64,000 bases of DNA from Tricharina praecox (GCF_024521635.1 NW_026250404.1:1612001-1676000), one strand, 5' to 3'; shown: positions 10,888-16,558, counted from the first letter of the stretch. A program made the numbers and translations. The notes: generated by a model not told the origin, from the letters alone.

Positions 10888-13800
10888 CTAACTATCAATG
10901 TTGGCAATCATGCCAATCTCACGCAACATCGCCGTCTGCGAATCCTCAGGTCCCAGCTCCCTATCACTGTTGGCATTCATGCCAATCTCACGCAACATCG
11001 CCGTCTGCGAATCCTCAGGTCCCAGCTCCCTATCACTGTTGGCATTCATGCCAATCTCACGCAATATCGCCGTCAGCGGATCCTCAGGCCCCAGCTCCCT
11101 CCTTCGCCACAAACTAAACTCCTCCTCATCCACGATATCGTCTCGCGCTGCTCCCCCGCTGTTACTCCTCTCAATGAGCTGAATCAACCAGCCGAATTTC
11201 TCGAGCTGCTCTTGTCGATCATCATATTTAATATGGCGACCCTTAGTCGTAGGCTCCCGCCGCTCATCCGTAGCCTTGCTCGGTCCTCTATACTCGTCGG
11301 GGATGGGAATATCTCTTCCCTTGACTATGATTTGAAGGCTTAACCTGCTGGAAGAGAGAGGCACGAGGTGGGGGAAAGCAGCGGTCTACGTACTACTCGG
11401 CGGCTCTGACGCCGTGCCATCTTTCACCCGTTCCATCGTCTGCCTGACCACATCCAACACTGTATGGTCGGAGGAAGATAATCGGTTGACATCAGCACCC
11501 GCGCGAATCAGACATCCGCAGTGGTTCTGTCGACGAATATTACCAGCTGCAAGTTGCAGTGCCGTCCAGCCGTCTCCGTTCACTACATCCAGGTACAATC
11601 CCTCGCTGAGCTTCCGTCCTGTCCGTGGTACAAACTCCAGGAGAAACTCCAAGAGCTTCGTTTCCGGCTCCGAAACTGCGAAGTGAAGGAGTGTGTCACC
11701 AGAAACCGGGCGCGCGATCAGATGTTCGTCGTATTCCAAGAGGAGGTGAAGGAATGCTTCGTGGTGACCGACTGCGGCCCAAGCTGCGGGGGTCAACTCG
11801 TCCCAGAATGTGTCTCCAGCCAGATTCCACCAGTCGCAGGTGGCGTGGAAGTTCGCGCCCTGGGCGAGCAGCAATCGACCTGGTTCGAGGGAGCCATATG
11901 CTGCCGCTGTGTGTAATGGTGTGAATGTGCTCATATCCTGGGCTTCGATGTCTGCACCGAGCTCCAGGAGTTTCGCTGTGGCACGAGTGTTGTAACTTTG
12001 TATCGCGAAATGTAGCGGAGTCCTCCTGTCTGCACTTCGTTGATTCACATCCGCACCCGCGGCGACGAGGTCAACTGCTATTGTGTTGCTGCAGAAGAGC
12101 GTGCTTCGTGCCCACTGACCCAGCGGCGTCTTGCCATCTCCTGCGCATGTCGAGTTTCCACTACACCCGTGCCCGAGGAGGGCTCTGACAACAGTCTCGT
12201 TATGGTTTCCTGCAGCTGCTACAATTGGTATGTAATCGCGCTCTGAGTCACCTTCAAGCAATTCCGGCGCCCTCTCTGCAACGAAATCGATGGTTGCTAC
12301 TGTGGATTGACCAGCTCGTACCCCAAGGAAGCCATCGATAGTGTCTATGTGGTACTGCGGCAACATCGCCAGCCACCACACTGCAGCGCCTAGCCAGTCC
12401 AAACATTCGAAAGCACCAAGCTTTTCCAACTCCTGCAGAATCTCGGATGATTGCTGGGCAATCGCATATTCAATGGGCAACGAATCCGCCGATCCCTCGA
12501 ACGAGCACAAATCTTCCATTACATCCGCATGCTGAAGGAGATTCTTCACCGCCGCAAGGTTGTAAGCCCGAAATGCAAACGTTAGCGGCCCTCCGAGGGG
12601 GAATCTTCCGTGGATTTCAATGCACGGGTGGTCCCAGCCCATGTCGTCGTCGAGTCGAGCGCCGGCAAGGAATAAGAGGTTGGTGGTACGAGGGATGTCT
12701 GCCGTGTCAAAGGATATGATCCAGTGGATGGCGGAGTCGCGGATTTTTACGCCGTCGATGTCCAGTGTTTGCGCTGAGGCGCCGGATGCGATGAGAGTCT
12801 GGTGGTGTTAAGGGTTGGGAGAACAAACAGCAGTAGAGAAAGACATGCCTCCAGAACGCCTAGGTGCCCGCCTTTGCAGCACAGAACCAGCAGACTCTCC
12901 CCAAACTCGTTGCAAGCGTTTGGATCCCCACCGGCTTGTATGCAGGCTTCTGCAAGCTCCTTGTCTCCATATATCGCCGCGTTCAATAGGAGGTCGTCAA
13001 CATCATCTCTACCCTCAATGGGCTTTCCGGAACCGATGCACGCTGGAGGTTGATTCGGATAGAAATACTGGTTAAACCCACCCCTCGAATGAAAGTCCTG
13101 TCTCGCCTGGATATATAAATCCGCATCGATGGTCCGCAGGGTCTTTTCCGCCGTCCAGGAGCCCCACGCAACAGCTTCATACAGCCAATCGAGTTGCAAA
13201 TCTTCATCGATGTCGAGTGGACGGTTATGAGCCACATGCCATGCATGAACTACCGCTTGCGCGGGGAGATAATCCGCTTTTGCGGACTGCACGGCGGCAG
13301 ATAACATCCCATCGATATCCGTGGGGCCTCCCAAGCCGAGAGACCGTGCTAGAGCCAGCTGGAAGTATGTGCGGCCACGGGTAGGGCCGCGGGTGGATTG
13401 CGTCAGGTCCGTTATTATCTGTTGTTGTACGTCCAGCGGGATCTCATCCTCGTCTTGCCAGCCGAAGGTTACGTAGTGTGCGTCGCTGAGATATGTCTGG
13501 AGGCTGTGGTCTATTTCTTTTCGTGTGCGGCCGACTCTCGGAGGGGGCGGTGGGCTTCGCAGAGTGTTATCAATGGTTCTCTAGATTGGAGGGCAACAGA
13601 CGGCATACCTCATTTCGGAGTCCACTTCGAGGATGGTTTCGACCATGGAAAGTTCTGAGCACCGCTCCTCCGGGTTATATGCCAACAGCTGTCTACATGC
13701 CAGCTCGAGGACGGCTTTGAACTCCTCTGGTACATTCTCATCCTTCTGGATGAAATCAACCCCGCTCTGCAGAACACTCTCATCCTTCGCACTCCAGCAC

Positions 13801-14657
13801 TCCCTCAGTTCCTCGGCAAAAATATGCAGCAACAATAGACCTAGTGAGTACGCATCACATCTACCCAGCATCTCAGGATGTATCGGGTGTCTCGATTGAT
13901 CCTGCGTCTCGGGAGCATTGGTTATATCCGTGCCATAATACCTCGTCTGCCTATCAGTCGGCAACGAGTCCAGGAATATACACGAGCCGAAGTCGGAAAG
14001 TTTCGCCATATACGGTTGAGCGATATCCAAAACCTTTTCGCCTCGTACGAGCAGAATGTTATCCACCTTAACATCCCCGTGGATAATCCCCATATCATGC
14101 ATTGCCACGAGTCCGCGGGTCACGTCCAGTATGATTGAGTACTTCTCTTCGCCGTCAAGATGGGCTTCTGGACAAGATGGACCGAGGAGGCTGGAGAGTG
14201 TGCGCTCTGCATGCCGTACGACTATTGCCGGGGTGTGAAGGTATGGGGATCCAGGGTCCTCTATTAGATCGTAGGCAATGAGGTTAATGATATGCGGTTG
14301 GTCCCGCAGAGCGCAGAGCGCTTTAAGCTCTTTGTAGAGTTCGTTTGCTCTCCTCTAGACTATTTATCAGTCGGTGGAGATCACAATGTGTGGGGAGCAA
14401 ACCCGATCCGCAAGGCCACCGAGATTTATGTTCTTCACAGCGAGCAGGCCTTCGTCAGAATCGATCCCCTTACCGTCGTAGACGGTAAATTGGCTACCCG
14501 CACCGAGGACCCTGGTGCGATAACCGAAGTGTTCGGATTGGAGTGCGCGTGGGATCTCATGGTGAGTTACTAGCGTGAGGAAGTCGCTTACTGTGCGGAT
14601 CTCGAGAGGGTGAGTAGGAGCCGGTAATTTGGTCGGGGGACGGTTGGAGTGGAACAT
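10888..14657 (-). CDS. Protein kinase + SEL1-like + ankyrin-repeat protein (~1180 aa, 5 exons)
   Basis: Manual splicing (introns 14355-14402, 13555-13608, GC-AG 12799-12848 and ~11325-11393) gives one continuous frame. It contains Gly-loop GAGSQFTVY, AVK, alphaC ELKAL, HGDVKVDN, DFG, TNAPE and DAYSLG. These are followed by SEL1-like YFQLALARSLGLGGPTD...AKADYLPAQA and roughly a dozen degenerate ankyrin repeats (e.g. RTPLHFAIQSYN..LLELGADIEA, FTPLHTAAAYG, GDTLLHFAV, GWTALQLAA). The last acceptor site is uncertain. Confidence 0.85.
10892..11100. repeat. Three tandem 69-bp units in the kinase-ankyrin gene's 3' end
   Basis: Units start at 10892, 10961 and 11030 (CTATCA[A/C]TGTTGGCA[A/T]TCATGCCAATCTCACGCAA...CCCAGCTCC) and encode RELGPEDxxTAxLREIGMxANxD three times. 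Confidence 0.95.
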
Positions 14658-14902
14658 GTTTATTGAGGGATGAGGTTGAGGATAACAGTGCTGAAGTTGA
14701 CGGTTAAAGGTGAGATGTTTCCCCCGCTGTAGAGTACTATCTCCGTAGAACATCATGCACACTGCACGACTCATTGCTTTTTCACGAATCACATAAGATG
14801 ACAAGATCATGGATGATTGATTGGTGGCCAGCTCAGGGATATATCATTATTACTGCAGCGTCTCAAGTACCCCACTTCACTATCCAAATCTCCAGAAATC
14901 CC

Positions 14903-16558
14903 ATGGCCGAACTCGCTCTCGGCATAGCCTCCATCGGACTGACCCTGATCGACGATGCCATCCGAGTGCTCCAGTACTTCCGGCTTGTGCTGGCGGACTC
15001 CAAAAGCCTCGGCGCCGACGCCCGCAAGATCAGCACGCAGACCGCTGTCGAAACCGCGCGGCTGCAAGCATTCCGCGAGTTCCTCCATGACCCCGCCGGG
15101 ACGACAACTCGATTTGAGCTCCTGCCACAGATGCATCAAACTGCGGTTGTCGGCATGATACAGGAGCTCGATATCCTCTTTGCGGCGTATTCGGCCGTCG
15201 TGGTCAAGTATGGGTTGGACTTGGACGTCGATGTTGTGGGTAGGGTGGATGTGGCCGAGGAAATGGTCCGCCGGGCCACACTGACGAGTACGCAGTTGCA
15301 GCTTGGGGCGAGCTGGAAGGCGAAAGCAGCTTGGGGCCTGTTTAAGAAGAAGAATATTGAGGTGGCTGTGCAAAGGCTTGAGGAGTGGAATAATAAGCTG
15401 CAAAACTTCCTTCTGTGCGGTCTGTGTTTTTTGGATGATAAGAAATTGATGGAGTTGAGGGACGGGACTACTATGTAAGTCCCCTCTGCAGGTGCTACGG
15501 AAGGGAGGGTGGGGTTGTTGATGGGATTTCATGGCAGGGAGAAGTTGCGGCTTGCGCCTGGCCTGCGACTGCGTGCGATCATCACTGGCGCCAATGCCTC
15601 CACCGTCGATATCGTCGAAGACGGAATGGTTCTCAGTCCACCCGTGGCGAATAGCTGTCTCCGGACCGTCAATCACACTGGGGGAAAACCAGAAACCGTC
15701 TACGTAGAATACAAACCTTACAAACCTCGACGCGGGGCCACCCAGCCCTCCGATGCAATGATCCGTCGAGTCCGGGCCCTCGGAAACCTCCTCTGCCAGC
15801 CATCAGCTTCAGATGCCGGGTTTCACACGTTATCGTGCAGGTGCATCATCAAGGAGAAGGACCACAACGGAAGGGCATTGAATAGATACGCATTCCTCTT
15901 CCGTCTCCCGGACGGAAACAGTGGGGAGCCCATCTCCCTGTCCGCAGCGATCACAATCCATCACTCCCATCGTCCGACCCTCGGCCAGCGCTTCCAGATT
16001 GCAAAGACACTGGCAACAACAGTCTTCCAACTGCACTCCGTAGGCTGGCTGCACAAATCCATCCGCAGCGAGAACATTCTCTTCTTCGGCGCACCCGGGC
16101 AGATGTACTCGCAGCAGTACCTCGTCGGCTTCGAGTTCTCGCGCGACGAGAACGACACCTCGACCATGGAGCAGGACGACGCGCTGGAACGGAATATCTA
16201 CCGACACCCTGACCGGCAAGGCCCACCTGACACTCGTTTCTCTGTGCTACACGACATCTACTCCCTCGGTGTTATCCTGCTCGAGATAGGATTGTGGCGG
16301 CCGGTAATAGGCTTCGAGGCGTTTGCGGACATGGATCCGGATACGGTCAAGGAGAGGCTGCGGGAACATGCCAACGCAAGGCTGCCGCATTATATGGGCA
16401 GGAAGTATACACGGGCTGTGTTGGAGTGTTTGGACCAGACGCTGGTGGATGGCGATGTGGTGGCGCTGGGCGGTCTGGAAAGGTTCAGAGAGAGTGTGCA
16501 GATTGCGTTTTGTGAGAAGGTTCTGGGGGAGATTGAGGGCGGAGTTGCGTTGGAATAG
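14903..16558 (+). CDS. HeLo/HELL-like domain fused to a pseudokinase (MLKL-like architecture, ~530 aa, 1 intron)
   Basis: N-terminal hydrophobic helix MAELALGIASIGLTL, ETARLQAF and KAAWGLFKKKNIEVAVQRLEEWNNKL are HeLo-family-like. Intron 15475-15537. Kinase-fold motifs VYVEYK, LGQRFQIAKTLA, WLHKSIRSENILFF, LVGFEFSR, YRHPDRQ and DIYSLGVILLEIGLW; both the HRD and DFG aspartates are absent. Confidence 0.85.

Follow-up and report, generated by a model that had tools for sequence, protein, structure and literature searches.

A 64,000-nucleotide stretch of DNA from Tricharina praecox (GCF_024521635.1 NW_026250404.1:1612001-1676000), referred to here at its full length as the window, carries two divergent genes, A on the minus strand and B on the plus strand. 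Gene A encodes a kinase followed by a middle domain, ankyrin repeats and a repetitive tail; gene B encodes a HeLo domain followed by a kinase fold that has lost its catalytic residues. The fungal origin of the window is confirmed by the pseudokinase exon of B, which is 100% identical to protein P0001 of T. praecox, a member of the class Pezizomycetes. An earlier interpretation made without database searches (the sequence-only reading) had described the pair as a kinase sensor and a HeLo-pseudokinase executioner of cell death. Its gene layout was accurate: the start codons are at 14655-14657 (-) and 14903 (+), with 245 bp between them (14658-14902), and the outer end points, 10888 and 16558, are the stop codons of A and B. 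Splice sites were first set by eye and were afterwards matched exactly by the contig joints of two sequencing runs, X1 and X2. The features of the pair, numbered from the first letter of the window, are as follows.

14657..10888, minus strand: coding sequence of gene A; 5 exons, 1182 aa; kinase, middle domain, ankyrin repeats and repeat tail.
14403-14657, 13609-14354, 12849-13554, 11394-12798 and 10888-11324, minus strand: exons of gene A; stop codon 10888-10890.
14355-14402 (48 nt), 13555-13608, 12799-12848 (GC-AG) and 11325-11393 (69 nt), minus strand: introns of gene A; contig joints in runs X1 and X2.
13622..14504, minus strand: kinase domain of A, split by the 48-nt intron 14355-14402; non-RD, tyrosine kinase-like (TKL-like).
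12993..13554, minus strand: middle domain of A; family-specific, without a Pfam family at E<=0.1.
11400..12992, minus strand: ankyrin-repeat region of A; contains the GC-AG intron 12799-12848.
10892..11100, minus strand: tandem repeats in the C-terminal tail of A; three 69-bp units giving a charged 23-aa repeat.
14658..14902, no strand assigned: region between the start codons; 245 bp, transcribed both ways.
14708-14829, plus strand: putative 5′ untranslated region (5′UTR) intron of B; 122 nt, GT..AG; joint 14707->14830, in run X2 only.
14903..16558, plus strand: coding sequence of gene B; 2 exons, 530 aa; HeLo domain and pseudokinase.
14903-15474 and 15538-16558, plus strand: exons of gene B; intron 15475-15537, a contig joint in runs X1 and X2.
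14912..15409, plus strand: HeLo domain of B; Pfam PF14479 and a profile match to HET-s.
15704..16555, plus strand: pseudokinase (DUF7580) of B; VEYK, HKSIRSEN, GFEFSR, YRHP.

The type of runs X1 and X2 is unrecorded, RNA being a guess; every predicted intron is missing from their contigs, the intron ends being GT..AG or GC..AG, and both spliced coding sequences are free of internal stops. The GC-AG intron of A has the donor GCATGT and appears in both runs as a joint with CT..GC ends. A contig of A from run X1 extends to 14709, inside the intergenic region. The stretch 14708-14829 is read as a 5′UTR intron of B whose upstream exon extends over the 5′ end of A, so that the transcripts would overlap head to head; the acceptor CAG of this intron aligns in two related loci, L001 and L002. 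A single contig across the two genes is no proof of one transcript. B is a 530-aa protein starting at 14903, and not one of 409 aa, as supported by the spliced contigs and by the full-length homologues P0005, P0023 and P0024, which begin as B does. The public T. praecox model of B, P0001, comprises 409 aa, with an odd short first exon and most of the HeLo domain omitted. It is recorded under two locus tags, BZA05DRAFT_385302 and BZA05DRAFT_413255, on two contigs; the gene may exist twice in identical form, or the record may have been duplicated.

The kinase domain of A is matched by Pfam Pkinase (2.8e-17; 63.4 bits, cut-off 31.7) on 13581-14354 (-). All catalytic motifs are kept, including the G-loop GAGSQF, AVK, the αC Glu, HGDVKVDN, DFG and APE; the presence of Gly in place of the HRD Arg (HGD) makes A a non-RD kinase. 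In an alignment of 24 A-type kinases, HGDxKxxN and DF are invariant, and the DFG Gly, APE and the αC Glu are nearly invariant. The top relatives of the A-kinase profile in the PDB are LRRK2 (1.9e-31), CTR1, ZAK, PAK1, IRAK4 and Pto, so the kinase looks TKL-like; the best 60 PDB sequences matched by this profile also include CDK6, STK33 and one tyrosine kinase, and there is no RIPK among them. The RHIM (RIP homotypic interaction motif) core, sought with the patterns [IV]Q[IVLC]G and N.G.Q.G, is absent from both A and B. The ‘RIPK-like’ character attributed to A earlier is consequently retained only at the level of a TKL-type kinase, with LRRK2, CTR1, ZAK and IRAK4 as the best solved relatives and no RHIM core.

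The ankyrin repeats of A are recognised by Pfam Ank_2 (8.7e-29, on 11386-12807 (-)), Ank (1e-20) and Ank_4, in agreement with the earlier description of a kinase with intact catalytic motifs followed by ankyrin repeats. The accompanying label ‘SEL1-like’ is not confirmed, since Pfam Sel1 gives no match at E<=0.1 in the window; the sole Sel1 match among the related loci, in L034, is below threshold (2.3e-5; 25.2 bits, cut-off 30.7). When 1.84 billion representatives were searched, some 30 among the 150 listed clusters (50% identity) extended over the non-ankyrin part of the middle domain of A. A 646-aa protein of the basidiomycete Piloderma croceum, P0126, combines this middle domain (45% identity) with ankyrin repeats, and its kinase match is only a remnant. 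The tail of A is joined in frame through the 69-nt intron 11325-11393. Its 69-bp units (Tandem Repeats Finder period 69, 3.0 copies, 95% matches) are 91-100% alike, and the 23-aa repeat matched no known family; in L002 and L003, the match to the A tail covers only the portion ahead of the repeats (53%).

The N-terminal part of B (open reading frame (ORF) 14903-15478 (+)) is matched by the Pfam HeLo family PF14479 over residues 4-169 (1.5e-9; 38.4 bits, cut-off 23.2), and the B family profile matches the HeLo structure of HET-s, 2wvo, at 8.9e-10, which bears out the HeLo assignment of the sequence-only reading. The C-terminal part (15479-16558 (+)) belongs to DUF7580, PF24476 (1.7e-8; 34.9 bits, cut-off 27); matches to kinase families are marginal. 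Most of the 120 listed of 268 B homologues carry PF24476. In B, HKS replaces HRD and FEF (in GFEFSR) replaces DFG, so that both catalytic aspartates are gone. The W-H-S-R-N, G-E-R and RHP positions are invariant in a 20-row alignment of B proteins, and the Lys of HKS and the Phe and Ser of GFEFSR are conserved in at least 90% of rows; in a 30-row alignment, little or no variation is seen in RHP, in the Ser that stands for the HRD Asp and in the Glu that stands for the DFG Asp. Since these replacements are (nearly) invariant in 20 and 30 members, the loss of the two aspartates is family-wide, and the representatives of the loci described below likewise lack both. The kinase fold of B was thus rightly called catalytically dead. 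Between GFEFSR and YRHP, in the position of the activation loop, B contains the Ser/Thr cluster DTSTMEQDD, which has the form D.STTEQDD in the clade to which the window belongs.

B ends with the pseudokinase and has no C-terminal prion-forming region, and a PP-like pattern is absent from A and B. BLASTP between A and B reveals only the kinase-pseudokinase similarity and no other shared motif, no dedicated amyloid-motif models having been applied. NACHT and NB-ARC domains, which the earlier reading had not seen either, are found neither in A nor in the 131 scanned of the 169 window ORFs of at least 110 aa; the remaining 38 are inside 10.7-16.6 kb or overlap longer ORFs.

The best solved kinase matches of the B profile are MLKL structures (4m68, 2.5e-4; 4btf, 4.2e-4; 6lk5, 9.1e-4), with IRAK4 and LIMK1 close behind. 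An AF2 model of the full-length homologue P0005, 60% identical to B, was obtained with a pLDDT (predicted local distance difference test) of 81.1 and a pTM (predicted template modelling score) of 0.84. A Foldseek search with this model yields many kinases at E ~1e-5; among the matches listed, only AtMLKL3 (6ka4, 631 columns) and mouse MLKL (544 columns) are aligned over the whole length. The AF2 model of the window HeLo exon alone is all-helical (pLDDT 77.5), and Foldseek returned nothing for it at E<=0.001.

The recurrence of the pair was assessed in metagenome contigs. A scan with the B profile matched at least 585 stretches, 349 of which encode relatives; the best 80 were kept as loci and fall into 63 clusters at 90% identity. 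Kinases were sought by tblastn with the window exons and by a kinase hidden Markov model (HMM) built from 26 A-like segments. An opposite-strand kinase is present within 5 kb upstream of B in 22 of the 31 clusters with at least 3 kb of upstream sequence; the values are 25/35 and 18/27 when at least 2 kb and at least 4 kb, respectively, are required. In the downstream control, with the same HMM on either strand, a kinase is found in 2/25 clusters (at least 3 kb) and 3/32 (at least 2 kb). There is no same-strand upstream kinase in the metagenomic loci, and nine further loci with less than 3 kb upstream have a kinase cut by the contig edge. A median of 1328 bp (n=30) separates the kinase ORF from the pseudokinase match of B, enough for the HeLo exon and a short intergenic stretch but no more, so A and B are direct neighbours.

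The architecture of the partners was determined by Pfam on 137 upstream minus-strand ORFs, with one locus per cluster. Pkinase is followed by ankyrin repeats at 13 loci (L002, L004, L009, L016, L018, L020, L026, L032, L034, L035, L061, L063 and L072) and by WD40 repeats at two (L059 and L062); at nine loci Pkinase is alone or contig-cut. Most of the partner kinases are of the HGD type and form one clade (98% SH-aLRT). The WD40-type partners (L059:3-1260 and L062:3078-4484) fall in one B subclade; the L062 kinase is of the HRD type, and the corresponding loop of L059 is off the contig. At L072:2820-8230, two tandem kinase-ankyrin genes lie upstream of a single HeLo-DUF7580 gene.

On a tree of 64 B representatives, 31 are paired, nine are orphan and 24 are non-evaluable; these states are interleaved, with at least 5-6 changes. 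The B clade of the window, comprising 15 rows, has 11 paired, 0 orphan and four non-evaluable members. At the orphan loci L078:2604-3634 and L079:629-1438, one B gene has a gene for a NACHT-type NTPase (NPHP3_N) about 6 kb upstream, with ankyrin-like matches beyond it, and a close relative is near a Plavaka transposase.

Pairs were also found in named genomes by phmmer with the middle domain of A, followed by cluster look-ups; here consecutive identifiers show adjacency, orientation being unreadable. The pairs are those of Bacidia gigantensis (A KY384_005374, KAG8529893; B KY384_005373, KAG8529892), Decorospora gaudefroyi (A KAF1830818; B KAF1830817) and Cylindrodendrum hubeiense (A G7Z17_g3648; B G7Z17_g3647). 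In all three species, Pfam identifies Pkinase and ankyrin repeats in one partner and HeLo and DUF7580 in the other. Together with Tricharina, these genomes place the pair in Pezizomycetes, Lecanoromycetes, Dothideomycetes and Sordariomycetes. A-type proteins were also found in Trichophaea, Sphaerosporella and Piloderma; among the 120 listed of 268 B matches there is no B protein from the same species as these A-type proteins. The suggestion that homologues might be adjacent in other genomes is therefore confirmed in 22/31 metagenomic clusters and three named genomes, with a head-to-head orientation wherever the strand can be read. The idea that two unrelated fungal immune-type genes adjoin by chance, in favour of which there is nothing beyond prior expectation, was rejected as exceedingly improbable, given the difference between the upstream and downstream counts (22/31 vs 2/25; Fisher's exact p = 1.8e-6) and the consecutive locus tags in the three named genomes.

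Trees were compared for 26 pairs, comprising the window and 25 clusters with an A segment of at least 180 aa; shorter segments were dropped, and L039, L044 and L071, where the kinase is downstream, were kept. The distances of the A-kinases and B-pseudokinases are correlated (Mantel Spearman r = 0.536, a value reached in 0/2000 permutations), and 11/23 splits are common to the two trees, among them the window clade of seven. Co-phylogeny of the pair, which the sequence-only reading had put forward as a check, is accordingly observed. A and B have diversified together; the congruent trees indicate that they travelled together, whether or not through a shared species history. The genes that flank the pair in the window were found at only L002 and L003 of the 80 loci, which makes the linkage specific to A and B and not a by-product of regional synteny. 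The window neighbours are housekeeping genes encoding Mtr4, Rad52, a septin, mitochondrial L32 and L17, MCM7, PEX1 and a PKA regulatory subunit. No terminal or direct repeats were detected on either side of the pair, and hence nothing that points to a mobile element.

Co-expression is frequent among divergent gene pairs, and A and B might be no more than neighbours under joint regulation, with one bidirectional promoter and a common pathway, such as stress signalling, with A not acting directly on B and B not killing. The persistence of the pair over four classes despite changing flanks, and the congruence of the trees, make this decidedly unlikely; the consistent combination of an active kinase with a dead kinase-HeLo protein is also hard to explain without direct interplay.

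A functionally coupled kinase/HeLo-pseudokinase module is well supported by these data. The preferred reading is that A and B constitute a conserved unit of two genes for regulated cell death or immunity, B being an MLKL-type executioner and A its dedicated upstream regulator; the probability of this reading, in which we infer binding, phosphorylation, direction of control, trigger and toxicity, is put at roughly 50%. B has an N-terminal HeLo domain and a C-terminal kinase fold without catalytic residues in one polypeptide, as have MLKL-type executioners. Since a competent kinase with repeats of a ligand-binding type and a dead kinase with a HeLo domain are both conserved, a sensor kinase controlling an MLKL-type executioner is the simplest reading, and the pair suggests a phosphorylation-controlled cell-death switch of a kind so far undescribed in fungi.

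In the mechanism considered most likely, the HeLo domain of B would be a membrane-targeting bundle restrained by the dead kinase fold, and the ankyrin repeats of A (WD40 repeats in some relatives) would serve as the input domain. A ligand or perturbation at the repeats would switch A on; active A would contact the B pseudokinase and phosphorylate the Ser/Thr cluster between GFEFSR and YRHP, and the phosphorylated B would then free its HeLo domain, leading to membrane damage. A complex prediction for the natural L018 pair (A kinase 13-365 and B pseudokinase 32-376, with alignments) gave no answer, with a score of 0.00, and speaks neither for nor against binding. A broader proposal is that filamentous ascomycetes have a necroptosis-like pathway without NOD-like receptors (NLRs) or amyloids, in which a repeat-bearing non-RD kinase directly senses non-self or danger and, through phosphorylation, switches on a neighbouring MLKL-type HeLo-pseudokinase; this is tentative, with a likelihood somewhat short of even. 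Of the kinase-sensor/HeLo-pseudokinase death module as envisaged earlier, the HeLo identity, the adjacency and the matching phylogenies are retained, the SEL1-like repeats are unconfirmed and the resemblance to RIPK persists only as a TKL-type kinase.

All of the evidence for coupling (pairing, architecture, tree congruence and named genomes) would fit equally well if the control had the opposite sign, with A restraining B by inhibitory phosphorylation or in a kinase-pseudokinase heterodimer and death ensuing upon the loss or inhibition of A or its modification by a pathogen effector. This would correspond to a guard/decoy logic, as in plant ZAR1-RKS1-PBL2, or to a toxin-antitoxin-like logic. 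The catalytic residues of A are conserved, which fits this reading too, and the tight head-to-head layout with overlapping 5′ ends would suit a restrainer and an executioner expressed in stoichiometric amounts. An unrestrained executioner, however, would be hard to tolerate in the 9/31 B clusters without an adjacent kinase unless the kinase is encoded elsewhere, and restraint of B by A is considered unlikely.

The pair could also be an allorecognition (heterokaryon-incompatibility) locus, at which co-adapted A and B alleles are compatible and a mismatch after hyphal fusion causes HeLo-dependent death. According to the accessible parts of a 2025 review (PMC12881547), known fungal het systems are tightly linked sensors and executioners with HeLo or gasdermin domains, and A contains repeat domains as well as, in the tail, a tandem repeat of 69 bp that expanded recently. 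However, contigs of two runs labelled as different organisms match the window, with at most three letters differing in one contig piece. The ankyrin region is also no more diverged than the kinase, whether the window is compared with L002 (72% vs 72%) or with L004 (53% vs 52%). Such a role is very unlikely.

Several observations weigh against A and B as a dedicated cell-death module. Nine of the 31 evaluable clusters (L022, L028, L045, L052, L056, L068, L074, L078 and L079) have no upstream kinase, so B also occurs without A next to it; orphan B loci with annotated neighbours are mostly surrounded by housekeeping-type genes. At L010, which belongs to the clade of the window, the 951 bp of upstream sequence show no kinase. 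L080, counted among the 22 paired clusters, is matched only by the HMM of this analysis and has no Pfam match; without it the count is 21/31. HRD-type partners outside the HGD clade occur at L049/50, L061, L062, L065 and L072. Many loci, judging from contig names, stem from few metagenome studies, and the congruence of the trees could come partly from a shared species history. As regards B itself, the sequence match of its pseudokinase to MLKL is weak (E about 1e-4). VIA-align scores of the isolated HeLo model against the MLKL N-terminal domain (Z 6.9), the MLA13 coiled-coil domain (Z 7.0) and HET-S (Z 5.6) are at the noise level for helical bundles. Activation-loop Ser/Thr residues are present in orphan B genes too, and the Ser/Thr cluster therefore does not separate paired from orphan B; it is compatible with the proposed phosphorylation and not diagnostic of it.

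HeLo-kinase fusions had been noted in fungi before, as the sequence-only reading stated. The accessible parts of PMC12881547 mention that HELL domains are in some cases accompanied by a kinase or pseudokinase domain in the same protein, which recalls MLKL, and section 18 urges a wider study of HeLo and four-helix bundle (4HB) proteins. B is one of these fusions; no partner kinase gene, gene pair or family-wide analysis is described in those parts of the review. The accessible parts of PMC10197012, PMC12258605 and PMC9815663 deal with NLR N-termini. No description of the A-B pair was found in the full-text literature, in keeping with the earlier statement that this two-gene circuit was not known to be characterised; subscription journals and supplements were outside the search, so a prior description is possible. 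No papers mentioning ‘DUF7580’ were found in the full-text literature either.

A dedicated, co-inherited kinase is a concrete candidate for the upstream control of fungal HeLo-pseudokinase fusions, and the pair points to a third class of fungal sensor-executioner pairs, beside NLR/HeLo and protease/gasdermin. It also bears on whether kinase control of 4HB-type executioners predates animal necroptosis. If the broader proposal of a necroptosis-like pathway is true, control of a 4HB-pseudokinase executioner by an active kinase would be common to fungi and animals, by descent or convergence, with A-B as its genetically compact form. The two-gene unit is small enough for transfer into yeast or Podospora.

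Fungal HeLo/HELL executioners are triggered by NLRs via amyloid templating. The NWD2/HET-S and PNT1/HELLP systems resemble A-B in that a repeat-bearing sensor and a HeLo/HELL executioner are encoded by adjacent genes, and the HeLo domain of B matches HET-s. They differ in that the sensor, A, and its counterparts at other loci have no NACHT or NB-ARC domain, A being an enzyme, and in that the regulatory part of B is a pseudokinase instead of a C-terminal prion-forming region. In HET-Q1/HET-Q2 and relatives, the executioner likewise adjoins an enzyme, which in many cases carries fused ankyrin, WD40 or TPR repeats; according to the accessible parts of PMC12881547 and PMC8851545, the gasdermin HET-Q1 is a pore former activated covalently by the neighbouring protease HET-Q2. 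The modification in A-B, in contrast, would be phosphorylation and not proteolysis, and B is a HeLo-pseudokinase and not a gasdermin.

Plant MLKLs (AtMLKL1-3 and Pm13) also have a HeLo-type bundle, a brace and a pseudokinase in one protein, and the AtMLKL3 structure can be aligned with the P0005 model over 631 columns; B, however, is in a separate Pfam family, DUF7580. No dedicated neighbouring kinase is known for the plant proteins.

In mammalian RIPK3-MLKL, the executioner is built from an N-terminal helical bundle that targets membranes, linker helices and, at the C-terminus, a pseudokinase that lacks the catalytic aspartates, and an active TKL-type kinase is located upstream in the pathway; A-B would share this plan. 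Among solved kinases the B profile matches MLKL best, and mouse MLKL aligns along the full length of the P0005 model; the accessible parts of PMC12881547 describe the MLKL 4HB as related to HeLo. The fungal system, known here from sequence alone, differs in that its genes are adjacent, and head to head where the strand is readable. A bears ankyrin (or, in relatives, WD40) repeats and no RHIM core, with LRRK2, CTR1, ZAK and IRAK4 as its nearest solved relatives, and the B pseudokinase is only weakly similar to MLKL (2.5e-4). A RIP kinase domain is combined with ankyrin repeats in RIPK4 and ANKK1. The A-B pair joins two known themes: executioners of the 4HB/HeLo-pseudokinase type under the control of a kinase, and fungal gene pairs made up of a sensor and an executioner.

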